A model generated the notes under the pieces. That model worked only from the letters and a program-made list of their open reading frames with translations. It had not been told where the DNA came from and searched no databases. The translations under genes and the position numbers were made by a program. From a virus, in the UHGV virus genome UHGV-0206207: 39,489 bases of DNA, one strand, 5' to 3'. This document shows positions 6,901-37,561 of this stretch, in pieces (positions within the stretch are counted from its first letter, which is position 1; the number at the start of each line of letters is the position of its first letter).

Positions 6901-8728
6901 CATCTGCGCTGTTTGCATAGGCGATATGTAGATATGGGGTCTTTCCATCAGCTCCCGGCTTTCCGGGTGTTCCGTTTGCTCCGTCCGCACCTTTGATCTT
7001 TGTCCATGCGTATTTTTTCGGGTCTGTGCTGTCATTTTGCGTAAAATCAACGTACATTCCGACATAATCCCGATTGCTGTCGGATACAGAAAAATCTTTA
7101 GACCCGTCTGCACTGTTTGCATAAGCAATGTGAGTGTACTGTGTTTTTCCGTCAACTCCGTCTTTTCCCGGGATTCCTTGATCCCCCTTTGGACCCTGTA
7201 TACCATCCAATCCCGGAGCGCCTTGTGGACCCGGAGGCCCCTGTTCGCCTTGCTCTCCTTTCTCACCTTGCGGACCCTGTTCCCCGTCTTTTCCATCGGA
7301 TACATCCGTAACCGTTACTTCTTCAAATCCCCTTAGGACTCCCTCTGTATCCCTTGCTTCAAATTTGTAGACCGCCTTGCTCTCCACATCCAAAGCTTGA
7401 ACTTTTATGGTCCGGCCGTCATAAATATGATTTCCACCCTTAAACCAACGAATGGTAAAGCTCTCTGTCCGGTCGATTCCATTATCCATCACATTTGCGG
7501 TCAGATTCGTAACTCCCTCGTTATTCTTGAAGATAATTCCGTTATCCGTAGAAATACTGCTGGTGTAAATTTTTGTTTTGTTAATCAGATCCTCTACTTT
7601 CTGCAGCAAATCTTCAGAGATTTCCGGCTGCAGCTCTTTAAAATTGGTAAAGACTGTCTTGTTTGCTTGCGGATTCGTGAAACTGCGAACCTGCTCCGAT
7701 ACTCTTACACTCAAGTATAAGGTAGGAACGTACTCCTCATCTTCGATCTCCACGGTATCTCCGATAGCGGTATCAAAGTATCCCGTCACATCATAAGTCA
7801 CAGCCGGTTCAGATGCGGTTTTAAGATCTGACAGCGCCATACTGTACAGTTTGTCTTTGTTATCCGTATCGTAGGATTTTGGCATAAAGATGTATCCGTC
7901 TTCCTTGTTTATCAGGTTTGATGGAAATCTGTCCCTTGCCTGTGGTGCCCGGATATCTGGACCTTGTGTATAAAACTCTACTACACCGTTCTCATCCAGC
8001 TCTTCTTTCTCAATTCCCTGTATAGTCAGTCCATCCTTTCCTGTTGGACGGATACCGGTGTACAGGTTTTCGATACTGGATTCCTTCCGGATGCCGGTAA
8101 CATTTTTCCCGTACCGCAGTTTGATATCTCCCCGGAACTCCCCAACTCCCGTGTTATTGTCTGAGTGTTCCCGATACACGTTCATTACAATTTCTTTCAG
8201 TGAATAATCATCATTTAACACAGTCTGGAACTCAATCTCCGCATCGAATACATTCGCCACGGAAAATAAACGGGACAGTACCGTTGCCTCACCTGTCCAT
8301 TCGTTTGAAATCCGCTTATCTGACACTTCATTGATCCCGATCCGCACGGTACGTTCCGGATCAAAGGCAGTTACATATTCCTCAAAGCTCATTGCGCTTT
8401 CAGATTTGTATGCCCCAACATTCTCGTTGATCAATTCGAAGCTTAAAGACCATGCTGTCGCAGTAACTGTAAATTCATCCTTTTCCACATGTACGATATT
8501 CAGATAGTAGTCTTTTCCGTTATATACAAAGGCTACTTTATTCCCTTCCACGATATACGCCGCATCCTCGTGTTTGGAACTTACCGTAAATGCGTATGTA
8601 TTCGCTGTCCCCTGCAGATATTCATGGAGCTCATCGTTCCAATAATGCATAGAGTTTCGATGGGTGTTATCCAAAAATGCAAGCACCCTGTCATGTGGAT
8701 TCAGTACGGCAATTCTGATTTCATTCAT
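3920..8728 (-). CDS. tail-associated protein / host-specificity (Tal-RBP fusion) with collagen-like Gly-X-Y tracts and at least 7 repeated ~70-aa modules
   Basis: 1602 aa, immediately downstream of Dit. The N-terminal ~400 aa look like the Tal/prophage-tail-endopeptidase N-domain. The centre holds many GxxGxxG collagen stretches that alternate with repeated modules ([19 protein letters not shown]...[32 protein letters not shown]). The C-terminal ~450 aa is a distinct domain. Confidence 0.75.
5300..7320 (-). repeat. in-frame tandem DNA repeats (period ~285 bp, at least 4-5 diverged copies) inside the tail-fibre gene
   Basis: Near-identical stretches are visible by eye, for example 6290-6510, 6775-6965 and 6975-7150 (TGTTCGCCTTTGATCTTTGTCCATG...GCTGTTTGCATAGGCGATATGTA). 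They encode the repeated protein modules. Confidence 0.6.
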
Positions 8729-15790: not shown

Positions 15791-16174
15791 TTACGAATTC
15801 GCCATGATACCCTGTTTTTTCATTTCAGCAAGAATTGCATTGATTTTATTTTTCAGGTCAGTTGCTGTTTCTGTGGACAAATCTTCGATCAAAGCCATCT
15901 GTTTCACGCCGCCGAGCGTTGTCTTGTTTGCTGCTGGAAGAGTGTAGCTTGGTCCCGCAGGTCCCTGTGCGCCTGGATCTCCCTTGTCTCCTTTCGGTCC
16001 TGCTACTCCTGGATCGCCTTTTTCGCCTTTTGCCCCTGCTGGTCCTGCCGGTCCTACTGCTCCTGCTGGTCCTGCTGGTCCAACCTGCTCATTCTTCACG
16101 CCTTGCTCTAACTTATTCAGTTTCTCTGCTGTAATAACGTCATCATTATTCCATTTAGTTGGTTCATATACCAT
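15791..16174 (-). CDS. collagen-like repeat protein, probably a head decoration or fibre protein
   Basis: 127 aa. The centre is an uninterrupted ~60-aa Gly-X-Y region ([44 protein letters not shown]). It sits right after the MCP gene. Confidence 0.6.
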
Positions 16175-24696: not shown

Positions 24697-24780
24697 ACAA
24701 CATATAGATTCCTGGGGGAAACAATCAGAACATTATCCTAATAATTCTAGAATAATTATATCATAAGTAAAATATAAATG

Positions 24781-25203
24781 CTATAAATCTTTAAGCTGTC
24801 CGCTTATAATCTGCGATACTCGCGCCTGGGTATATCCAATTTCATCTGCGACTTTTTGTTGGGTTTTCCCCTCAAGATAGTGCAACTCGAATATCTCCTT
24901 AATCTCCGGATCGCCAATCCCATTTATGTAGTCTTCGACTTCTTCTTGCTCTTTCAGGATCCGCAGCCTGTCCGCTTCTTTTCGCCTAATCTGCTGTCTT
25001 ACATTCTCGTCTTCGTAAGGATCATACATCTGGACTGATGTTCGCACTTCCGTGTATGGGAAATCTGCACTGGATCCTGTTACTTTCCCCATAACAACAG
25101 TTGGTTCCCGTTCGCAAAGTTCTTGTGTCCTCTCCTCTATTCGGATTAACCTGTCTTTGTTCGGCTTATACTTTTTTAAAGTTTTCTTGTCCACTGGAAA
25201 CAC
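24781..25203 (-). CDS. ArpU-family / sigma-70 region-4-like late transcriptional regulator
   Basis: 140 aa. The C-terminus ELHYLEGKTQQKVADEIGYTQARVSQIISGQLKDL is a sigma-factor region-4 HTH. Its size and its position upstream of the packaging genes are typical of ArpU-like late activators. Confidence 0.7.
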   Translation of the reverse strand: MFPVDKKTLKKYKPNKDRLIRIEERTQELCEREPTVVMGKVTGSSADFPYTEVRTSVQMYDPYEDENVRQQIRRKEADRLRILKEQEEVEDYINGIGDPEIKEIFELHYLEGKTQQKVADEIGYTQARVSQIISGQLKDL

Positions 25204-26267: not shown

Positions 26268-26434
26268 ATTTTCCTAAAACATTCAGTGTGAAAAAAAACA
26301 TCCGTTGCCCTCTTTGTCCTCACATACTGGATACGACTCATATCATCCGATTCCCTGATGGCCTGTCCGCATCCCGGGCATAACACCTCACTGAAATGTT
26401 TATTTAATGCCTTTTTCTTTGCCTGATCTGTCAA
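26234..26434 (-). CDS. small C2HC zinc-finger protein
   Basis: 66 aa carrying CPGCGQ...HTEC. Confidence 0.45.
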   Translation of the reverse strand: MTDQAKKKALNKHFSEVLCPGCGQAIRESDDMSRIQYVRTKRATDVFFHTECFRKIWNRRVGICRY

Positions 26435-27872
26435 TACCCTTGTTCTCCTTTATCGCTTTAATCCTTGCCTTCAGACTGGCCATTACCCAGCCTTGCACAT
26501 CATCCTTTTTACTAAGCGCTTTCATCACATCTTCATCTCTGGTCTCCGTACAGACCAGGTGATGTATGATCACTTTCTCTGTCTGCCCCTGTCGGTGTAG
26601 TCTTTTATTTGCCTGCGTGTACAGTTCATAATTCCATGTCAAGCCGAACCAGATCACGTGATTTCCCCCCTGCTGCAGATTCAATCCGTAAGCGCTGCTG
26701 GCTGGATGGGTAAGCAGTAGGTCAATCTTTCCTGCATTCCAGTCATCCTCGTCCTGCGTTGTCTTAAGCTCACGGATCCGCAATTTTGATTTTTCCAGTG
26801 CTTTCAGAATCCTGATCTTATCATGCTGAAAATTATAAAACACCAGTGCCGGTTTCCCCTGAAGGGACTCGATCAGTTCCAGGAATGCTTCAATCTTACA
26901 GTTATGTATTTCATGATAGTTCCGGTCTTCATCATAAATTGCCCCGTTTCCAAGCTGTAACAGCTTATTACTCAATGCTGCTGCACTTGTGACACTGATT
27001 TCTTCTTCATCCTCCGGCAACTCCAGCACCATCTTGTACTCTAATTCCGTATAGGCCTTCCTTGACTTGCTGTCAAGCTCCACTGGTATTTCATGATATG
27101 TGATATCCGGAAGTTGCAGGTAATCCTCTGCTTTCATGCTAATACAGATATCTGAGATCTTCTGTAGGATACTTTCTTCGGTTCCCGGTTTCGCCTTATA
27201 GTTGTAAACCACATTCTGTCCCCGGTCTCCCGGATCAAAATAGCGTTCCCGGAATCCGGTGTACCGCTTTCCAAGCCGATCACCCTCATCCAAAAGATAG
27301 ACCTGCGCCCAAAGATCCTCTAAACCATTCGGAGAAGGAGTTCCTGTCAGTTCCACCATCCTGCCAATCCTGGAACTGACACTTGCCAGGGCTTTGAACC
27401 GTTTCGCCTTGTGGCTTTTAAAACTGCTGGACTCATCAATCACCACCATGTCAAACGGCCAGGCATTACGGTAATAATCCACCAGCCACACCACATTCTC
27501 CCGATTGATGATGTATAGGTCAGCCGGCGTATTGAGGGCACGTATCCTTTTTGCTTCGCTTCCAAGTATCTGGGATACCCGCATCATCCGCGTATGCTCC
27601 CATTTATCCTTTTCCTTCGTCCAGGTTCCCTCTGCGACTTTTTTCGGTGCGATCACCAAAATTTTTTGTACTTCAAACCGGTTGTATTTTAATTCCTTTA
27701 CCGCTGTCAATGTTGTGATTGTTTTCCCTAAACCCATATCCAAAAAAAGCCCGATTTTTTTAATCTCCAGTATCTTATCGATACAGTACCTCTGGTATTC
27801 GTGGGGGATGAATTTCTTTACATCACAGCCCATATCTCTGCACCAGCTTTCTGCTTGCTTCCTCAAATCCAT
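26400..27872 (-). CDS. SNF2-family DNA helicase
   Basis: Motif I LDMGLGKT, motif II VVIDESSSFKS (DExx box) and C-terminal helicase motifs (QGQTEKV). Confidence 0.85.
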   Translation of the reverse strand: MDLRKQAESWCRDMGCDVKKFIPHEYQRYCIDKILEIKKIGLFLDMGLGKTITTLTAVKELKYNRFEVQKILVIAPKKVAEGTWTKEKDKWEHTRMMRVSQILGSEAKRIRALNTPADLYIINRENVVWLVDYYRNAWPFDMVVIDESSSFKSHKAKRFKALASVSSRIGRMVELTGTPSPNGLEDLWAQVYLLDEGDRLGKRYTGFRERYFDPGDRGQNVVYNYKAKPGTEESILQKISDICISMKAEDYLQLPDITYHEIPVELDSKSRKAYTELEYKMVLELPEDEEEISVTSAAALSNKLLQLGNGAIYDEDRNYHEIHNCKIEAFLELIESLQGKPALVFYNFQHDKIRILKALEKSKLRIRELKTTQDEDDWNAGKIDLLLTHPASSAYGLNLQQGGNHVIWFGLTWNYELYTQANKRLHRQGQTEKVIIHHLVCTETRDEDVMKALSKKDDVQGWVMASLKARIKAIKENKGIDRSGKEKGIK

Positions 27873-28164
27873 GATCCCGAAAGAACTGGCAGACTCCTGA
27901 GATGCCGTATATCACATGTACCCGTTGACCTAAGTCTGACAGCCTCTTTAACTGGACTCTCTGGACGGATGACACTTTTCCAGAATCCGTTTTCAACTCT
28001 GTGAAGATCGGCATCTGTCCCGGAAAGATGATGATCCGGTCGGGTACTCCGTTATTTCCCGGGCTTACCCACTTATAAGCCCTGCCTCCCAGTTTTTTTA
28101 CCTCTTGTACTAGGATTTTTTCAATTTCTTTTTCTAACATTCTCTTACCTCCTGACAACAACAA
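27823..28164 (-). CDS. VRR-NUC domain nuclease
   Basis: 113 aa. GVPDRIIIF...ELKTDSGKVSSVQ is a PD-(D/E)xK core of the VRR-NUC type. The gene overlaps the SNF2 gene, which is the usual pairing. Confidence 0.7.
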   Translation of the reverse strand: MLLSGGKRMLEKEIEKILVQEVKKLGGRAYKWVSPGNNGVPDRIIIFPGQMPIFTELKTDSGKVSSVQRVQLKRLSDLGQRVHVIYGISGVCQFFRDHGFEEASRKLVQRYGL

Positions 28165-28440
28165 GCCCTATACGCGTATATGTATACGCGCGTATGCCGT
28201 TTATGGCGTATTATGGTGTATATATATATATCTTTAATTATATTTTTTTATTTTTTATAAAAAGTTTGTTGACACTGTTGACATATATCTACAAACAACG
28301 TAATTTCGCTATTTTTTATGTCAACAAATGTGTGACATTAGTGTCAACACGTAAACAAGCCCTAATTTTTACATTTTTTCTACTTTGTTGACAGTTTCTA
28401 CCTTTGATGACACCCTTTTCACTGCTTTGTTGACACCCTT
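28165..28440. repeat. putative replication origin or regulatory region: two 12-bp palindromes, a (TA)6/AT-rich unwinding element and ~8 TTGTTGACAC iterons in both orientations
   Basis: TATACGCGTATA (28169-80) and ATACGCGCGTAT (28184-95) are perfect palindromes. TTATGGCGTA/TTATGGTGTA is a direct repeat. TATATATATATA is followed by a T/A-rich run. Iteron copies lie at approximately 28267, 28277, 28318 (inverted), 28331, 28341 (inverted), 28384, 28404 and 28427. The last copy is inside the primase 3' end. Confidence 0.5.
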
Positions 28441-30830
28441 TCAAATCCTCTCTGTGTACCGTAAAACCCGTACCTCAAAGACGATTTATTTCTTTTCCAA
28501 CCGCTTATACAAGATAGGATGTTGTTGATTTCCATGCTATCCCTCTTCCCCATGTATTTGATATCGGAACCAAAGCACTCCTGCCATATTTCTGCCGCAC
28601 ACACTTTTTCTCTGTCCATCAGATCAACGTTCTCTGTTAAATGCGCTCCCCCTTGCAGGAACTGCCGCCTTTGCATCAGGTTCATGCTGTCCCAGCCCAC
28701 AGGGATTTTCCGTTCTAAGAATTCCCGGATCACACCTTCTTTAGCAAAAGACTCCCTGTGTTTCTCCTGCTGTTCTTCTGCCAGTTTTTCAATCTCTTTT
28801 GGCAGAAATAAGGACTCTCCCAGTACCCAGTACATGTACGTTTCCGCCCAGATCTGATCCACTTCTTCCGGAAGATCCACCCATACAGATTTCTTTGCCT
28901 TATACTCCCCCACATCCACCGGCCAGAATCTTCTGTTGCCTGTGGCGTCTTTTAGGAATTCGCTGTCATTTGAAGTACCAAAAAATACACATCTCCTGGG
29001 ATACTTATCTGTTGTACGCCCATACGCTGCCCGGTAGATATCGTGTGTCTTGCTTAAAAACTGTTTGACCGCACTGGTTTCCTGCTTTGTCATTGCTGTC
29101 AGTTCTCCCACTTCATTGATCCAGGTACCCTGTATCAGTTCCGCTGCTTCTTTTCCTTCAAAGCTTGTCAAAGAATCCGAAAACCACTGTTTTCCTAAAA
29201 TTGCAAGGAATGTACTTTTCCCGATTCCCTGCGGTCCGGTAAAGATCGGCATATAATCATATTTCACTCCTCCGGTTACAGCTCTTGCTACTGCAGCACA
29301 TAAAGACTTCCTGATCACCGCCCTTGTATAGGCATTGTCCTCTGCACCCAGATAATCCGACAGCAGCGTATCCACACGCTTTTTACCATCCCATTTCAAG
29401 CTCTCCAGATAGTCCTCCACCTCGTTAATCTGATTCTGGCTGCTCACGATCAGCAGACCGTTATCTAGCTTTTCTTTTCCCGTAAGTCCGTAAAATGTCT
29501 CCATATATCGGTAATACCCTGCGTAGTCAACATCTTTCCAACGCCGTTTTTCCTCTCTCTGTTCCCACGGCAATGCGCCCAGTACCATTCCACAGCTTGC
29601 AAATTGGTCGATAACGATCTTCCCTTTTAAGAGCGGATCATTTTCCAGTACCAGTGTTACATTTGCAATTGTTTTTTCGATTTTCCCATTTCCATCTTTT
29701 GTCAGATTCAGTACCCAATCTACATTCTCGCCCTCTTCCGGTGTCGGACTTTCCAGACCAGATACTTTTTTTGCCTGTTCAAACTTCTCTTTAATAAGAA
29801 GAGTAGACACCTCTTTGTCCGCTCGTGCCATTTTTGCCATTGCTTGAAAAGACGGAAGCTTTACGGATGGAGTGCCCTCTTTTGCTTCTTTATCCAGATC
29901 GCCATACATATGCAGACGGATCAGGTCAAACGCATTCACCAACTGCCCGGAGCATGGATCCGTAGCATGGTGGGAATAGAGGAACAGATCACCGTCATAT
30001 AGAATCGCACCTCCCGTTGTAGTTCCTCCCGTATAAGTGTATCTGTTTGGAATATCCGTCTGTTCGTACATTCCCGGGATAAACTGTTCCATTGCCTGCG
30101 TAATGGAATACGTACGGCAGAATGCTCCTATGATTCCTTTTTTCTCTGTCGGATTTTCCTGTTTTGCCAGACGCCTTTTTTCGATGGTTTCACTTCCGGG
30201 TACTTGCGGCCATTCGGCTACATTCTTCCAGTTCTTATACATTCCTAACAGCCCGTCCAGACTGCAGAACGGATGATCATATACCTGATAAACATACTCC
30301 CCGTCCTTACAACAGCTTGGCCAGTACATTAGCCGGCTTGCATCAAATGTGGTCGGGTCACAGAACTCGATCCCAATCAATGCCGCCGCCTTTCTTGCTG
30401 CGGGTTCATATTCGTCCGGAGTAGCCGTTCTATCCACAGGAATAATGACCCGGAGTCTCGGGGCATATCCGGAATGTTTCCGTGTACTATAAACAACTGC
30501 TGCGCATCCCAGTCCAGATACTCTCTTCAATATTTCTTCTGTCTGCCCTGCCGGTACATTGTCCATATCCAATGTCAGCAGATCTCTCCCCTGCACGTAA
30601 GCCCCTTTTCTTCTATCATTGAAAAAGGTACCGCCGACAAACCCTCCAACATCTTTCAATTCAGCTTGTTGGCTCTTTGACAATGCCAAATAATTTTCTA
30701 ATGTTTCCAGACTTCTGGCCGGAGTTTTCAACCGGTCAACAAATTCCGACCACATGATCTCACTTTTCGGCCAGTATGTAGCCTTTCTTGATCCGGCCAT
30801 GCTGACCAAAAGTTTTCTGTTATATTCCAC
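28419..30830 (-). CDS. primase-helicase (phage/plasmid P4-type primase, VirE/D5-like NTPase C-domain); GTG start with AGGAGGAG as RBS
   Basis: 803 aa. Walker A GPQGIGKST sits in the C-terminal half. It is positioned between PolA and the origin-like repeats. Confidence 0.7.
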   Translation of the reverse strand: MEYNRKLLVSMAGSRKATYWPKSEIMWSEFVDRLKTPARSLETLENYLALSKSQQAELKDVGGFVGGTFFNDRRKGAYVQGRDLLTLDMDNVPAGQTEEILKRVSGLGCAAVVYSTRKHSGYAPRLRVIIPVDRTATPDEYEPAARKAAALIGIEFCDPTTFDASRLMYWPSCCKDGEYVYQVYDHPFCSLDGLLGMYKNWKNVAEWPQVPGSETIEKRRLAKQENPTEKKGIIGAFCRTYSITQAMEQFIPGMYEQTDIPNRYTYTGGTTTGGAILYDGDLFLYSHHATDPCSGQLVNAFDLIRLHMYGDLDKEAKEGTPSVKLPSFQAMAKMARADKEVSTLLIKEKFEQAKKVSGLESPTPEEGENVDWVLNLTKDGNGKIEKTIANVTLVLENDPLLKGKIVIDQFASCGMVLGALPWEQREEKRRWKDVDYAGYYRYMETFYGLTGKEKLDNGLLIVSSQNQINEVEDYLESLKWDGKKRVDTLLSDYLGAEDNAYTRAVIRKSLCAAVARAVTGGVKYDYMPIFTGPQGIGKSTFLAILGKQWFSDSLTSFEGKEAAELIQGTWINEVGELTAMTKQETSAVKQFLSKTHDIYRAAYGRTTDKYPRRCVFFGTSNDSEFLKDATGNRRFWPVDVGEYKAKKSVWVDLPEEVDQIWAETYMYWVLGESLFLPKEIEKLAEEQQEKHRESFAKEGVIREFLERKIPVGWDSMNLMQRRQFLQGGAHLTENVDLMDREKVCAAEIWQECFGSDIKYMGKRDSMEINNILSCISGWKRNKSSLRYGFYGTQRGFERVSTKQ

Positions 30831-30841
30831 TTCAACTCCTC

Positions 30842-32818
30842 CTAGTCTTTCATGTAATAGTCACTCTCAAATCCAGCACCTTTTAAGATCAGTCCCGGTG
30901 CCCAAGGTATCGGCTCTGCCATCAGATCACAGATTTCATCCACCGTAATTGATACAGGGGCATCGATGATCACCTCATCATGTACATGAAACACGACCTG
31001 CAGCCCCATCCTGTCAATTCTTTTTAGAGTCTCTGCAAGACAGTCACGTGCGATTGCCTGTACGATATTCTCTGTCATCTTTCCACCATAAGTGGATGCC
31101 ACTTCCCATTTTCTTGTCTGTTGCCCGACCGTGTAATAGTGGATTGCCATCTTCCCAAACTGATTCTCCTGCAGAAATGGTTTCGGGTAGAACAGCTTTC
31201 TCCCGCTTGGAAGCTGCACTGTCAAAAATGACTGTCCGTATACCAGATCCCCCTCGTACCGGAAAATCAAACCGTAGATACCCTGTGGCTGTGCCGTCTG
31301 CATCGTAGTAAGGGCCGCCTGCTCCACTGCATACCACAAGTCTCTGATCCGTGGATTTGCGCTCCGCCATCTCTGTACGATATCGGGAAGTTCCTCTTCC
31401 GCCAGTCCCATATTCAATGCTCCCATGGCAATTAAGGCTGCTGTTCCACCCTGATACCCTAACGCAAGCGTGGCAACTTTTCCTTTCTGCCGCAGGCTGT
31501 ATTCCGGATTTCCTTTTGCAATCTTTTCAATCGGAACATGGAACATCTGAGATGCTGTTGCTTCATAGATCTTTCCATGTGTAGCAAATACTTCATTTAC
31601 CCACTGCTCTCCCGCCAGCCACGCAATCACACGAGCTTCAATGGCAGAAAAGTCAGCCACAACGAATTTATTCCCATCTGAGGGGATGAATGCTGTTCTG
31701 ATCAGCTGCGACAGAGTATCCGGAACATTCCCGTATAGCAGCTTAATCCCGTCATAGTTTTTATCTTTTACAAGGTTTCTGGCATAATCCAGGGTCTTTA
31801 AATAATTCCTCGGAAGATTCTGCAACTGTACAAGCCTTCCTGCCCAACGTCCGGTCCGATTCGCACCATAAAACTGTGTCAGTCCGCGTACACGATCATC
31901 CGCTCCTTTTGCGGTATCCATGGCAACATATTTCTTAATAGATGTTTTCCCTAACTGCTGACGAATTTCCAAAATCTTTCTCGCATCATCCGGAAGATCT
32001 TCCCGCTGTAAGTATTCTTCTACTGTTGCTTTTTGCAGGTTTGGAACATCCACATCTTTTCCGGACAACCACTGTTGCAACTGTGTTGCGCTATTCGGGT
32101 TTGCAAGACCAGTAATCCTGAATGCTTCTGCTGTCAGGCACTCCGTGCTGTGAGAATCAATTGCCAAAGCTCCTGCGATCAGATTTGTATCTACTCGAAC
32201 TCCATACGCATTCATCAAGATATCCATCCTCCACAATCTCTGTTCTTCTTTCGGAACTGGAAACGCCTGCAACCTTTTTAGGATTTCATTCTCAGTGACA
32301 ACGTCTTGTTTACAATATTCCCTGAACAGCTCCCACTTTTCTGGAGCGTGCTTCGGAAGATTCCAGCTCCTGCCACCGTTACTTTTTGTCGGCTTGCAAG
32401 GAGTACAAAAATATCGGATCAGAGCCTTTCCTGTGGAAAGCTTCTGCTTATCCTGCGGAAGTCCTATCGCCTTTCCTGTTGCATCCAACCCTGCGGTGTA
32501 CCCGCAATACAGTCCATGGATCATCGTACAGTTCCACTGTTCCAAAGGAGTACGATACCCTGCAGTATTCAAACAGTACCACTCAAATGCCGCATTATAT
32601 GCGTGCTTGACCACATTAGGATTCATAAGAGCGGTCAAGATCCGTTCTGGAATACTTTCTTCTGCGGTAAGATCTACAAGCTGTACGTCCTCTTCATCAT
32701 ATTTATAGGCAAACAAAAGAATTTCAAAATCTTCGGACTGTGCATATCTGTAAGCTCCCGCTTTTGTGATGTCCACACTGCTTTTTGTCTCAATATCTAT
32801 AGATAAATGGTGTTGCAT
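30842..32818 (-). CDS. family A DNA polymerase with 3'-5' exonuclease domain (Pol I Klenow-like; no 5' nuclease domain)
   Basis: Exo I motif LSIDIETKS at the N-terminus. Motif B RQKGKVATLALGYQGG. Motif C VVFHVHDEVIID. Confidence 0.85.
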   Translation of the reverse strand: MQHHLSIDIETKSSVDITKAGAYRYAQSEDFEILLFAYKYDEEDVQLVDLTAEESIPERILTALMNPNVVKHAYNAAFEWYCLNTAGYRTPLEQWNCTMIHGLYCGYTAGLDATGKAIGLPQDKQKLSTGKALIRYFCTPCKPTKSNGGRSWNLPKHAPEKWELFREYCKQDVVTENEILKRLQAFPVPKEEQRLWRMDILMNAYGVRVDTNLIAGALAIDSHSTECLTAEAFRITGLANPNSATQLQQWLSGKDVDVPNLQKATVEEYLQREDLPDDARKILEIRQQLGKTSIKKYVAMDTAKGADDRVRGLTQFYGANRTGRWAGRLVQLQNLPRNYLKTLDYARNLVKDKNYDGIKLLYGNVPDTLSQLIRTAFIPSDGNKFVVADFSAIEARVIAWLAGEQWVNEVFATHGKIYEATASQMFHVPIEKIAKGNPEYSLRQKGKVATLALGYQGGTAALIAMGALNMGLAEEELPDIVQRWRSANPRIRDLWYAVEQAALTTMQTAQPQGIYGLIFRYEGDLVYGQSFLTVQLPSGRKLFYPKPFLQENQFGKMAIHYYTVGQQTRKWEVASTYGGKMTENIVQAIARDCLAETLKRIDRMGLQVVFHVHDEVIIDAPVSITVDEICDLMAEPIPWAPGLILKGAGFESDYYMKD

Positions 32819-32861: not shown

Positions 32862-33491
32862 TTACATCGGCATCCCTGTGATCGGATTGATCGCCTGCAC
32901 ATTCTGCGGTGTGTTCCTGTACTGCGGTGTTGGATTCACTGGCTGAGGCATTGCGCCAAAAGCCTGTGCTGCTGTCGGCGCACTTCCTCCCAGGGATTCT
33001 CCATCTTCCAGTTTCATGACCGGACCCAAACCACATCCAATTCCTTTCTTTCCCCCGAAAGAATATGGGAAGAAGTTCACATTTACTCTCGCATAAATCC
33101 CACTGTAAATCTCAGACTGGTTAATAATCGGATTCATGTTTGCGTCTACCACCTCCGGTGGATAATCTGCTTTTGCACTTGCCGTGAACACCCAGTGTCC
33201 TTTACATTCTGCCCCAAATGGCATCCCATCTGACGGACGCACACCGTCCCCGTCATGAACTGGTGTTGACACCACAGGTGGGCATACACCGTTCCATTTT
33301 TCCGCTGTTCCCCTCTGCTTCGCGGCTTCAATAGCTGCATTGATCCGGTTCATAGTATCCACATCGGATTTCGGCACTAACACGGTAACGCTGAATTTTT
33401 CTTCCTGCCCCGGTGTAGCCGCATAAGGTTTAAATAAGTGTACATAAGATAATCTTGCTTTTCCTGTTGTTACGTTTGTTAATTCGTTCAT
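32862..33491 (-). CDS. DUF2815-family ssDNA-binding protein
   Basis: 209 aa. The N-terminus TTGKARLSYVHLFKPYA matches the conserved start of DUF2815 proteins, which are found between the DUF2800 and PolA genes. Confidence 0.6.
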   Translation of the reverse strand: MNELTNVTTGKARLSYVHLFKPYAATPGQEEKFSVTVLVPKSDVDTMNRINAAIEAAKQRGTAEKWNGVCPPVVSTPVHDGDGVRPSDGMPFGAECKGHWVFTASAKADYPPEVVDANMNPIINQSEIYSGIYARVNVNFFPYSFGGKKGIGCGLGPVMKLEDGESLGGSAPTAAQAFGAMPQPVNPTPQYRNTPQNVQAINPITGMPM

Positions 33492-33492
33492 A

Positions 33493-34671
33493 TTAGTTTT
33501 CCTCCTTGAATGCCTCTTCGGCTGTCACTTTGTTTGTAATTGTTTCTCTTTTATCTGACTCTTTTGCAAGTGTCGGTTTCCCTGGCTTCTTTACCACAAA
33601 CTCTCCGACTGCGTCCTGAAAATCTTTCTTCCCTATCAGCTTTTCTACCTGCGCCAAAGTCAGTGGTTTCTTTTCCCACAACATCGGCTCTTCTGTAATC
33701 CCACTCTTTAAAAGTTTTTCAAATGCTGTATCCATATCTGTCCAGTCTCTGGATCCTCGGCCCTCTACCGCTTTCCATCCAGGAATCTTCTTTCCGGCAA
33801 GGCATTCTGACAATGCAAACTCCTGCAGATCTTTGAGCCATCTTGCAACATCTTCTCCCTGTTCCAGGTATCTTCCAACTTCCTCATTTGTAATCAATGG
33901 CGGTTTCTTGTCTGTTGCAAAAGCCAGCTTCACATTTTCTTCTGCCCTTGCCCTGCACTGGGATTTCGCACGGCAGAACCTGCACTGTTTTTCCCCTGGA
34001 ACAAACTCTCCGTCTCCTTTAAATGCAACTGCAGCCTTTTCCTTCACATAATCTCCAAATTTCAAAAGCTGTTCCAGACTACAGCCCCATTCAGAGATTC
34101 CGTCTGGCAGCCTCGGCTGCACGATAGCAAGCCGGATCTGTTTAATCGGATAAAATAACTTACATGCGTCATATGCACCGAGTGCATACAGCATCATCTG
34201 TGGATTTTCCTCTGCGGAAACAAGAACACCCTTGCCGTATTTAAAGTCGATCACAAACAGGGTTTCTCCCTGAATCATGATGCAGTCTGCAGTACCGAAC
34301 CCCTCTGGTACATAGGAGTCAAACCGGACTTGTTTTTCTACTTCCACATACGGATCTGTTGGGAGCTTAATGGACACATCCCGAATATAGTCAATGTATG
34401 TGTCCGTATGCTCCAACATTTCGTCATCCCATAACGGGTTCTCTTTCATTTTTTTGATTGCAAAAGTCAGCTTTCTTTTAGACACATCATGTGGCTTAAA
34501 ATAGTTCCTCACCTTCAGCTCTGCAAGTTCATGCGCCAGCGTCCCCTCTTTTGCAGCATCAGAAGTAGTATCCGGAAATTGTTCCTCCAACCGTGCACTT
34601 GGGGTACACGCCAGCCATCTGTGAGCCGAAGATGCACTTAACAGAGCATGGTTTCTCTCTTCATGTGCCAT
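33493..34671 (-). CDS. DUF2800-family PD-(D/E)XK nuclease with C-terminal Cys cluster (Cas4/RecB-like)
   Basis: CRFCRAKSQCRARAE is a Cys cluster, and there are DxK-type nuclease motifs. The start was chosen at the ATG at 34671 (MAHEERNH), which abuts the upstream stop. The alternative start is 34743. Confidence 0.65.
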   Translation of the reverse strand: MAHEERNHALLSASSAHRWLACTPSARLEEQFPDTTSDAAKEGTLAHELAELKVRNYFKPHDVSKRKLTFAIKKMKENPLWDDEMLEHTDTYIDYIRDVSIKLPTDPYVEVEKQVRFDSYVPEGFGTADCIMIQGETLFVIDFKYGKGVLVSAEENPQMMLYALGAYDACKLFYPIKQIRLAIVQPRLPDGISEWGCSLEQLLKFGDYVKEKAAVAFKGDGEFVPGEKQCRFCRAKSQCRARAEENVKLAFATDKKPPLITNEEVGRYLEQGEDVARWLKDLQEFALSECLAGKKIPGWKAVEGRGSRDWTDMDTAFEKLLKSGITEEPMLWEKKPLTLAQVEKLIGKKDFQDAVGEFVVKKPGKPTLAKESDKRETITNKVTAEEAFKEEN

Positions 34672-34672
34672 A

Positions 34673-35110
34673 TTAGATCTGAGCCCCCATTTCCCGAATC
34701 GCCGTTGCAAAGCTTCCATACTGTTCTGCTGGTAGTTCCACAAGAGAGGATACCCCGAAACTCTGGATCAGCTGCTGCAGCTGTGCCTGCATCCCTTTGT
34801 CCATTAAAGACATGGCAGCTTTTGACAGATCTTCCCTTGTATACGTCGGCGCAGCTATAGGAATCGACGGGGCCGGCGCGGTATTCTGAATTACTTGATT
34901 CTGCTCTGGCTGTTTTGGCTGTACCGATGTGTTCGCCTCTGGAAAATGCGGTGCAATCTGCTGTCCATAGGAAACTGCTTGTTGAGGCTCAACGTCCGGA
35001 ACGGTTTTGCTGACTACAGGGGTTTCCATACCTCCCTCTTTGGATAACAGTTTCTCTGAAAAAGAAACCAGTTCCTCATAACTATCAAATGTAAGTGTAA
35101 TCTGTGCCAT
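34673..35110 (-). CDS. hypothetical protein with a P/Q-rich linker
   Basis: 145 aa made of two short domains separated by the low-complexity stretch PQQAVSYGQQIAPHFPEANTSVQPKQPEQNQVIQNTAPAPSIPIAAP. Confidence 0.5.
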   Translation of the reverse strand: MAQITLTFDSYEELVSFSEKLLSKEGGMETPVVSKTVPDVEPQQAVSYGQQIAPHFPEANTSVQPKQPEQNQVIQNTAPAPSIPIAAPTYTREDLSKAAMSLMDKGMQAQLQQLIQSFGVSSLVELPAEQYGSFATAIREMGAQI

Positions 35111-36761: not shown

Positions 36762-36947
36762 CTACTCCAAAAAATACTCAACACTTACGCCGAAGTAATC
36801 GGCTAAGACTTTTAGTTTTTCTACTTTCGGCTTGCTTCTACCTGTTTTCCAGTCTGTAAAAGTAGACTTCGTAATTCCTGTATCAGAAGCAACTCTGTAA
36901 TCCGTAATTTCTTTCGAATCACGCAACTCTGCATATTTTTCGTACAT
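36762..36947 (-). CDS. Cro-like XRE-family HTH regulator that heads the early lytic operon
   Basis: 61 aa with HTH TGITKSTFTDWKTGRSKP. GAGGTG is the RBS. It is a truncated paralogue of the repressor N-domain (~60% identity on eye alignment). Confidence 0.75.
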   Translation of the reverse strand: MYEKYAELRDSKEITDYRVASDTGITKSTFTDWKTGRSKPKVEKLKVLADYFGVSVEYFLE

Positions 36948-37132
36948 TTTTTCACCTCTTTTCCGAACTTTCTATTGATTTTAGTTCGGAAATCAGTTAC
37001 AATATATTTACCAGATACATTGACAAAGAATTGCGCTACAATTCTGTTTTGATTTCCGAACTTTGTAGCTTTATTATAGTGCGGATTTCAGAACTTGTCA
37101 ATACTTTTTTGTACTGATTTCAGAATTTTTTT
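36948..37132. promoter_or_regulatory. divergent promoter/operator region of the lysis-lysogeny switch
   Basis: Operator O1 is TTTCCGAACT-13-AGTTCGGAAA (36959-36993). Operator O2 is TTTCCGAACT-13-AGTgCGGAtt (37053-37087). There are extra half-sites TTTCAGAACT (37086) and TTTCAGAAT (37118). The candidate repressor promoter is TTGATT(37049)-17-TATTAT(37072). The candidate cro promoter on the minus strand is TTGTCA(37026-21)-16-TATTGT. Confidence 0.55.
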
Positions 37133-37144
37133 ATGAGGTGTATT

Positions 37145-37561
37145 ATGTATGAAATTTATTGCAAGTTAAGAGATGAAAAAGGATGTAAAGATGCGGATGT
37201 TGCGAAAGCTACTGGTATAACTAAGTCTACTTTTTCTGATTGGAAGAATGGGCGAAGTAAACCAAAAGATGAGAAGCTTACTAAGATAGCTGATTACTTC
37301 GATGTACCATTAACATATTTCTATGAGGAACATAGGGATAATGCAGCATCATTGACAACGAGAGATGAGCGTGACATTTCCAAGACAGTAAATGACTTAA
37401 TGGAAAAATTGGAAGCAAAAGATGGGGCACCACTGTTTTTCGACGGTACTGAAATGAGCCCAGAAACAAAAATTTTATTCGAACAGCAATTAAAGTCATT
37501 AGTAACTACTGTTAAGGAAATCAACAAGGTCAAGTTTAATCCGAACAAAAATAAAAAGTAG
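37145..37561 (+). CDS. XRE-family phage repressor (CI/ImmR-like); start at MYEIYCKL
   Basis: N-terminal HTH TGITKSTFSDWKNGRSKP plus a ~75-aa C-terminal extension. AGGTG is the RBS. It is translationally coupled to the downstream ImmA-like gene. Confidence 0.75.
   Translation: MYEIYCKLRDEKGCKDADVAKATGITKSTFSDWKNGRSKPKDEKLTKIADYFDVPLTYFYEEHRDNAASLTTRDERDISKTVNDLMEKLEAKDGAPLFFDGTEMSPETKILFEQQLKSLVTTVKEINKVKFNPNKNKK

Follow-up and report, generated by a model that had tools for sequence, protein, structure and literature searches.

Introduction

The Rep initiators of Staphylococcus aureus pathogenicity islands (SaPIs) load themselves and use their C-terminal domain to recognise iterons that surround an AT-rich region just past the rep gene (PMC9371898; PMC7581432, citing Ubeda 2007). 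SaPI initiators and iterons constitute matched specificity pairs (PMC9371898, PMC7581432). Here we describe a comparable element in the virus genome UHGV-0206207, a stretch of 39,489 nucleotides that represents a prophage and is called the window below. We conclude, with a probability of roughly 80%, that positions 28153 to 28436, at and beyond the 3' end of the gene for an 803-residue VapE-type primase-helicase, form a replication origin of the SaPI type, which would be served by a self-loading initiator-helicase and carry an added primase-linked signal. All the evidence is computational.

As in the SaPI systems (SaPI1 Rep, 7PDS; SaPI5 PriRep5), the element lies directly downstream of the initiator gene and combines short iterons in both orientations with an AT-rich region; the helicase core of the initiator is homologous to that of SaPI Rep, and its C-terminal domain is fold-homologous. 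Several differences from the SaPIs were also evident. Primase and Rep are fused here as in PriRep5, yet the fusion has a Rep1-like helicase. At 8-9 nt, the iterons are longer than the 5-6 nt of the SaPIs, and the first is part of the coding sequence. The locus also has a purine-pyrimidine tract and a further repeat family linked to the primase half, neither of which is mentioned in the SaPI papers cited, and the carrier is a complete Lachnospiraceae-type prophage, not a satellite. Functionally, the element probably belongs with the SaPI-type Rep/ori replicons.

The origin of Enterococcus phage Abitsa (Efquatrovirus) was similarly deduced from a PriRep5-like helicase and seven 10-bp iterons around an AT-rich region (PMC13517437); Abitsa is from another phage group, its helicase is from another subfamily, and its origin was described by annotation only, without covariation evidence. 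In the staphylococcal cassette chromosome mec (SCCmec), the helicase Cch2 binds repeats just downstream of its own gene, in a region that is the preferred start site of priming (PMC7581432), which parallels an origin-embedded priming signal as proposed here. Unlike the present locus, SCCmec has three 5-nt iterons only, with a separate A-family polymerase complex (CCPol-MP) as the primase. To our knowledge, no residue-base covariation has been reported for SCCmec. P4 requires a second cis site, crr; by contrast, no second iteron cluster was found in the window. As in P4 alpha (ori/crr) and pRN1 ORF904, a primase, a superfamily 3 (SF3) helicase and a C-terminal winged-helix origin-binding domain are united in one polypeptide (PMC2777425). 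However, the P4 alpha primase is of the DnaG type (PMC2777425), and no sequence similarity to P4 alpha was found here.

Results

Iterons and the AT-rich tract

The octamer TGTTGACA occurs in seven exact copies in the whole window, six of which are located within 28267-28435; copies that read TGTCAACA in the gene sense are called forward. Together with TGATGACA at 28405-28412, there are seven good iterons (at most one mismatch), five on the plus strand and two on the minus strand, with start-to-start spacings of 9, 43, 23, 44, 19 and 23 nt (Table 1). Six exact copies of TGTTGACA/TGTCAACA per 200 bp represent the strongest 8-mer cluster of the window, and no 8-mer exceeded three copies per 200 bp in 100 dinucleotide-preserving shuffles. 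No second iteron cluster (three or more copies) was found elsewhere in the 39.5 kb, and the lone extra exact copy, at 33264, corresponds to chance expectation. Among the 40-mers of the window, the one at 28223-28262 has the highest AT content (97%), and the one at 28219-28258 is the least stable duplex (dG −34.2 versus a mean of −53.3 with a standard deviation of 4.1, approximately 4.7 standard deviations above the mean).

An earlier note on this DNA had proposed a phage origin here, and the features on which it relied were all recovered in place, namely two palindromes, a direct repeat, the (TA)6T run and an A/T tract extending up to 28265. It counted approximately eight iterons in both orientations; there are seven good copies, and in addition a degenerate copy (28350-28357) and a distal copy (28153-28160). 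The copy that it saw inside the 3' coding end of the primase gene is iteron 1. The gene context of primase-helicase, VRR-NUC and SNF2 was also correctly described.

Iteron 1 encodes the C-terminal tail of the initiator. When it is of the TGTCAACA type, the protein ends in ...VSTKQ; in relatives of the G type or A type (L015 and L023; TGTGAACA or TGTAAACA), iteron 1 itself gives the TGA or TAA stop codon and the protein ends in ...GFERV.

Table 1. Positions of the iterons, associated elements, proposed recognition segments and replication genes in the window
Feature	Position	Strand	Remarks
Iteron 1, TGTTGACA	28428-28435	+	Forward; within primase-helicase codons 797-799 (Val-Ser-Thr)
Iteron 2, TGATGACA	28405-28412	+	Forward; gene sense TGTCATCA; 1 mismatch
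Iteron 3, TGTTGACA	28386-28393	+	Forward
Reverse tandem pair	28342-28357	-	Degenerate TGTTTACG (28350-28357) abutting exact iteron 4, TGTTGACA (28342-28349); also in relatives
Iteron 5, TGTTGACA	28319-28326	-	Reverse
Spacer, 35 nt, with conserved motif	28284-28318	-	Consensus GAAAACCGCAnAAATACA; here AAAAAATAGCGAAATTACG; alignment of 57 unique loci
Iterons 6 and 7	28267-28283	+	Forward tandem pair, 9-nt spacing; abuts AT tract
AT-rich tract, ~45 nt	28219-28265		Includes (TA)6T at 28219-28231; candidate DNA unwinding element
Second repeat family, two to three copies	28191-28220	-	9-10-nt period; gene sense TACACCATAA, TACGCCATAA, degenerate AACGGCATAC; core C-A-T
Alternating purine-pyrimidine tract, 29 nt	28169-28197		Contains both 12-nt palindromes; Z-DNA- or cruciform-prone
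Distal iteron, TGTTGTCA	28153-28160	-	Reverse; 1 mismatch; beyond AT tract, just upstream of VRR-NUC ribosome-binding site
Codons 773-795	28446-28514	-	Recognition-helix end and beta-hairpin 'wing'; proposed iteron-specificity determinant; here Ser783, Ser784, Arg794
Codons 318-328	29847-29879	-	Motif E-G-T-P-x-x-K-L-P-S-F (here EGTPSVKLPSF); residue 323 is Val here
SNF2 helicase	26400-27872	-	
VRR-NUC	27823-28140	-	
VapE-type primase-helicase-initiator	28419-30830	-	803 residues; stop codon at 28419-28421
Family-A DNA polymerase (PolA)	30842-32818	-	
Enc34-type single-stranded DNA-binding protein (SSB)	32862-33491	-	
DUF2800 nuclease	33493-34743	-	

Conservation of the layout in related loci

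Relatives were collected by protein search; a megablast search of the replication module against GenBank phages gave no match. In the IMG/VR set, 80 contigs encode a primase-helicase 69-99% identical to that of the window, and all of those carrying the downstream VRR-NUC gene keep a gap of approximately 245-615 nt before it. In 77 of the 77 contigs with enough downstream sequence, the gap opens with a repeat array that has copies in both orientations and ends in a tandem pair with 8-9-nt spacing, after which comes a 40-mer with an AT content of 78% or more. The first iteron overlaps the primase stop codon in most of these relatives. An independent set of 49 prophages from bacterial genomes, whose hosts are mostly Lachnospiraceae (the closest being Faecalimonas, 85% identity), showed the same layout in at least 41 cases, with the tandem pair and the AT-rich 40-mer in most. 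The layout extends to four phages that have been cultured (42-51% identity), namely Paenibacillus Pd_22F, Enterococcus phiFL4A, Staphylococcus vB_SauS_690 and Clostridium phiCT453A, and every one of these has an iteron of its own. In all, the layout is kept across approximately 130 related loci.

Some relatives (L024, L026, L032-L034, L027/L028, L051/L052 and others) have a primase/VRR-NUC gap of approximately 500-650 nt instead of approximately 280 nt, with additional DNA inserted past the origin elements. A related arrangement occurs in the Lacticaseibacillus rhamnosus 'plasmid' pAF20 (14,130 bp), which resembles a phage-inducible chromosomal island (PICI) and carries integrase, prim-pol, VapE, terminase, portal and capsid genes. 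At positions 6903-7181 (locus L135), at least 14 TGTCCCA/TGGGACA iterons directly follow its VapE gene, but without an AT-rich tract. A search of plasmids revealed no minimal replicon built on the primase-helicase gene; the matches were phage-like or PICI-like episomes and large replicons.

Conservation in related phages applies to the layout, whereas the sequence of the repeat itself is lineage-specific. There were 26 types of tandem pair, and examples of the iteron are TGTCAACA, TGTGAACA, TGTAAACA, TGTAAACC, TGTTGCCA, TGTACCCA, TGACTACA and AAACTACA. Two prophages of this group with different iterons (TGTCAACT/TGTAAACC and TAACTACA) reside in one chromosome, that of Lacrimispora sinapis JR3 (NZ_CP141832.1; L096 and L100), which fits orthogonality of co-resident replicons.

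The lineage-specific iterons bear on the alternative offered in the earlier note, which took the TTGACA cores for stacked −35 boxes or for operator sites belonging to a middle promoter. Such a promoter would drive VRR-NUC, SNF2 and the downstream genes. The repeats do contain the σ70 −35 consensus, and the region is upstream of that gene block, with no terminator detected in the primase/VRR-NUC gap. However, most relatives keep the positions and replace the TTGACA core by TTCACA, TTTACA, TAGTCA, TTGCCA, TACCCA and others, and the repeat sequence varies with the C-terminus of the primase, not with a sigma factor or regulator. In addition, most copies are antisense to all genes. A promoter scan of 27800-28800 gave 0 promoter-like hexamer pairs versus 2.5 in shuffles, and none of the TTGACA copies has a −10 partner. 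Because the repeat sequence differs between lineages, the stacked −35 boxes are extremely unlikely.

Domain organization of the initiator

The primase-helicase has an N-terminal primase-like half, a VapE/SF3 helicase core (residues 475-692) and a predicted C-terminal DNA-binding domain. It matched the Pfam family VapE-like_dom (E 2.4e-80) and, along its entire length, PHROG 256; residues 1-433 matched PHROG 9765 'DNA primase' (E 7e-109). Residues 371-722 matched SaPI1 Rep (PDB 7PDS, Rep1-DNA complex) with an E value of 6e-75 in phmmer. The AlphaFold2 model of residues 660-803 (predicted local distance difference test score, pLDDT, 82) has a helix-turn-helix plus a beta-hairpin, with helices at 745-753 and 762-774 and then the hairpin at 778-786. 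The only significant Foldseek matches of this model were 7PDS chains (E 3e-5).

Iteron type tracks the C-terminal domain

The distance between iterons was compared with that between 20-residue windows of the primase by partial Mantel tests on 66 unique proteins, with the global distance controlled. These tests, and counts of joint changes on a neighbour-joining tree from which the tested segment had been omitted, were used in place of raw mutual information per column, because clade structure in the hypervariable linker 310-375 dominated the latter. The tail from residue 797, being encoded by iteron 1, was excluded. The correlation peaked at residues 766-795 (0.53-0.63, p 0.001) and was −0.05 at the neighbouring residues 746-765. 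The C-terminal peak was replicated in the independent genome set (0.45, p 0.001).

Individual residues were also paired with individual bases. Lys784 was present exactly when iteron positions 6-7 are CC (12/12 versus 0/61), and Pro784 accompanied CTAC cores (17/22 versus 0/51). Arg794 was found with A at position 8 and Lys794 with C (40/6/0/22, Fisher 9e-13), a pairing that holds in all six iteron cores having more than one variant at position 8. On the tree, Lys784 and CC at positions 6-7 underwent 7 changes each, 7/7 of them on the same branch. Lys794 changed 14 times and C at position 8 changed 12 times, with 9 changes on the same branch, whereas control residues shared 0 to 1 branches.

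A natural swap was seen between two relatives, L012 and L015, which are approximately 97% identical over 8.6 kb. Their identity drops to 70-77% solely from primase codon 773 through the iteron array and returns to 93-100% in the AT tract. Within this patch, C is replaced by G in register in most iterons, among them the tandem pair and the copy overlapping the stop codon, and the proteins differ at residues 773, 774, 776 and 782-784. Because of the AlphaFold2 model, the iteron-linked residues can be assigned to the end of the putative recognition helix (762-774) and to the wing. The earlier note had suggested the N-terminal domain of the primase as the iteron binder; the C-terminal winged-helix-like domain is the likely reader.

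It might be argued that the iteron-binding protein is another one, encoded beyond the 8-10 kb compared, and that the match of the primase C-terminus reflects hitch-hiking in recombination patches, considering that the specificity segment is merely 30-90 nt from iteron 1, that L012 and L015 also differ beyond SNF2, and that the N-terminus of VRR-NUC is weakly correlated with iteron type as well (residues 1-20, partial r 0.28). We regard this as very improbable, since the signal falls to the above −0.05 within 30 residues upstream, the residue-base pairings recur on separate branches, and the domain is fold-homologous to a known iteron-binding domain.

A weaker covariation peak with iteron type was observed inside the helicase core, at residues 571-605 (approximately 29016-29120 of the window; partial r 0.33-0.45 in the IMG/VR loci and 0.18-0.19 in the genome loci).

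A second explanation accepts that the C-terminal domain binds the iterons but makes the site regulatory, acting in initiator titration or handcuffing or in read-through control, with the true origin elsewhere. Plasmid iterons also act in copy control, and covariation demonstrates a protein-DNA partnership, not origin firing. On the other hand, the array abuts the least stable duplex of the window, the window holds no further iteron cluster apart from the chance copy mentioned above, and the position matches the experimentally defined SaPI and SCCmec origins (PMC9371898, PMC7581432). A purely regulatory site is thus improbable, although somewhat less so than the hitch-hiking described above.

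A second repeat family tracks residue 323

The direct repeat TTATGG(C/T)GTA, noted earlier as one of several origin features, is present in two copies, TTATGGCGTA at 28201-28210 and TTATGGTGTA at 28211-28220. It is probably a separate recognition element tied to the primase half, being part of a short-period repeat family between the AT tract and the purine-pyrimidine tract. Relatives carry this repeat in a CCT form (TACCTAA, CGCCTAA) or a CAT form (TACATAA, GCCATAA), independently of their iterons.

The form of the repeat covaries with residue 323 of the initiator, within a conserved motif at residues 318-328 between the primase-like half and the helicase. Asn323 was combined with CCT in 27 of 27 unique combinations, and non-Asn residues (Ser, Val, Ala, Ile, Gly) with CAT in 15 of 16 (Fisher 1e-10). 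Pd_22F, vB_SauS_690 and phiCT453A also have Asn and CCT repeats. On the tree, residue 323 changed 9 times and the DNA 8 times, and 8/8 DNA changes fell on branches with a residue change. In the closest comparison, L013 (Asn, CCTAA) and L006/L007 (Ser, CATAA) differ at 7-10 of 803 residues, S323N included, and both repeat copies differ. The changes at residue 323 share no branch with those at iteron position 8; therefore, the two pairings are independent.

Helix-bundle domains that follow archaeo-eukaryotic primase (AEP) domains read templates in pRN1 (PMC2965215) and in RSF1010 RepB' with ssiA/ssiB (PMC8567376). In both, a segment after the AEP catalytic domain sets template recognition at origin-embedded sites, in oriV in the case of RSF1010 (PMC8567376, PMC2965215), and this is the role proposed for the 318-328 motif. 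Unlike those of RSF1010, the repeats here are short direct repeats and not 40-nt hairpins, and priming is a proposal. By this analogy, we propose that the second repeat is a primase recognition or priming signal.

The units of the second repeat resemble weak −10 hexamers (CATAAT/CCTAAT) approximately 60-80 nt upstream of the VRR-NUC start codon, and they could instead be promoter elements or host-factor sites unrelated to the primase module. We consider this unlikely, though it retains a real share of the probability. One base of the repeat switches with a residue encoded 1.4 kb away, in step with all of its changes on the tree, independently of the iteron pairing, and no −35 partner is present.

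The alternating purine-pyrimidine tract and the spacer motif

The twin palindromes TATACGCGTATA (28169-28180) and ATACGCGCGTAT (28184-28195) are present as first described, but both belong to one conserved tract of alternating purines and pyrimidines. No alternating run of the window is longer than this one of 29 nt, and 200 shuffles gave at most 21; the second-longest run (16 nt) is also in the primase/VRR-NUC gap. In 51 of 59 unique IMG/VR loci, the longest alternating run of the whole locus of approximately 10 kb lies 175-260 nt past the primase stop codon, and it occupies the same position in 41 of 49 genome loci. When the palindrome region was folded as single-stranded DNA, the hairpin z-scores were only −1.1 to −2.0. 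Therefore, stable hairpins are unsupported beyond composition, and the conserved property is the alternating pattern itself. The 29-nt tract would be a conserved structural part of the predicted origin element.

The motif in the 35-nt spacer is kept irrespective of iteron type in the 57 unique loci aligned and may be bound by a conserved factor of the host or the phage.

Gene neighbourhood and other features of the window

The genes flanking the 278-nt gap between primase-helicase and VRR-NUC are all on the minus strand. The replication module consists of DUF2800, Enc34-type SSB, PolA, VapE primase-helicase, VRR-NUC and SNF2, and neither the O nor the P family was detected among the replication-module genes scanned. 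A serine integrase gene is at 665-2101 of the prophage. A scan of 27900-28700 against Rfam gave zero matches; therefore, a structured RNA is unsupported. A pac or cos site, attP and a partition site were dropped on position: the terminase-size genes and the integrase gene are elsewhere, as are par genes if there are any, and it is the primase that the repeats follow.

Three other regions of the window were recorded. The second most AT-rich and second least stable stretch, 24739-24788, lies in and just upstream of the start of a gene for a sigma-70 region-4-like regulator (24781-25203, minus strand) and may be a regulatory region. Between a minus-strand gene starting near 36947 and a plus-strand gene starting at 37146, the region 36950-37145 contains three TTTCCGAACT/AGTTCGGAAA copies in both orientations (36960, 36985 and 37052) and two GATTTCAGAA(C/T)T copies, which look like the operator set of a lysis-lysogeny switch. 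Within a structural-gene region, 8-mers of the GCTGGTCC and GCAGGACC types are clustered at 15996-16074, three copies of either type, and probably represent a short repeat in coding sequence.

Discussion

The origin reading is supported by the combination of iterons, an AT-rich element and adjacency to the initiator gene, which is kept throughout the related loci, by the homology of the initiator to SaPI1 Rep, whose defined origin is alike in position and logic, and by the co-evolution of the iterons with the C-terminal domain. In the proposed mechanism, this domain of the 803-residue protein would bind the TGTCAACA iterons, as suggested by covariation and SaPI1 Rep homology, along an array that runs from the last codons of the gene to the 9-nt-spaced tandem pair. 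Binding would melt the adjoining AT tract of approximately 45 nt, on whose far side a weak reverse iteron is situated, and hexamers would load by analogy with the known systems. The primase half would engage the 9-10-nt C(C/A)T repeats beside the melted region, with residue 323 tracking one base. Gene content suggests that the primer would be extended by the neighbouring family-A polymerase together with the Enc34-type SSB. Varied iteron specificities would render co-resident replicons orthogonal, which may be the reason that close relatives carry different iterons.

Several points weigh against this interpretation. We infer binding, melting, priming and origin firing in every case. The main array is confined to one flank of the AT tract, with a single one-mismatch copy beyond it; the SaPI AT-rich region, in contrast, is described as flanked by at least two iterons per side in opposite orientation. 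A far-side copy with at most one mismatch was detectable in only 12 of 52 relatives, as a reverse copy of the locus's own iteron 96-111 nt past the tandem pair (versus 2.2% for foreign motifs), with clear pairs in phiFL4A and phiCT453A. The N-terminal 370 residues of the initiator were modelled with a pLDDT of 52, and their top Foldseek matches were AEP prim-pol domains at a best E value of 0.019, which is not significant; in the N-terminal half, Pfam gave only a weak match to BT4734-like_N (E 0.23), and an NCBIfam search gave no match. In view of the correlation of the VRR-NUC N-terminus on the other flank, covariation near the 3' end of the gene could come partly from physical linkage. There may be a weak promoter in the AT-rich or CATAAT-like region. 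GC skew is monotonic, with no switch at the 28.2-28.4 kb site, but is uninformative because every gene from approximately 2.2 to 35 kb, the surroundings of the site included, is on one strand.

A one-sided array is also known from ori-lambda, in which the O iterons adjoin a 38-bp AT-rich unwinding region, and initiator-origin specificity types occur in related phages there as well (PMC3349717). Ori-lambda differs in being wholly within the O gene, whereas only the first iteron overlaps the coding sequence here; moreover, O is not a helicase, and host DnaB is recruited via P.

More tentatively, and with somewhat less than even odds, one polypeptide may read the origin twice by two independent residue-to-base codes, with the Z-DNA- or cruciform-prone tract as a conserved structural part. 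The winged-helix domain would read the double-stranded iterons, with residue 784 tracking positions 4-7 and residue 794 (Arg/Lys) tracking position 8 (A/C). The motif E-G-T-P-x-N/S-K-L-P-S-F, after the primase catalytic domain, would read a priming or loading signal beside the unwinding element, with Asn corresponding to C, and Ser, Val or Ala to A.

This replication module is widespread in phages of Firmicutes, including Staphylococcus Triavirus, Enterococcus phiFL4A-like phages, clostridial phages and many human-gut prophages, and no description of its origin was found in the literature searched. The present analysis assigns a position to the probable origin and yields single-residue predictions for recognition, namely that residues 783, 784 and 794 are likely to read the iterons and residue 323 the second repeat. 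If the two codes exist, the prophages of gut Lachnospiraceae would hold a natural library of mutually orthogonal replicons, and there would be a first sequence-level handle on how fused primase-helicases choose the first priming site. If the second pairing marks a start signal for the primase, it would open a route to the coupling of origin melting and the first primer in self-loading primase-helicases, and may provide parts for compatible replicon design in Clostridia.

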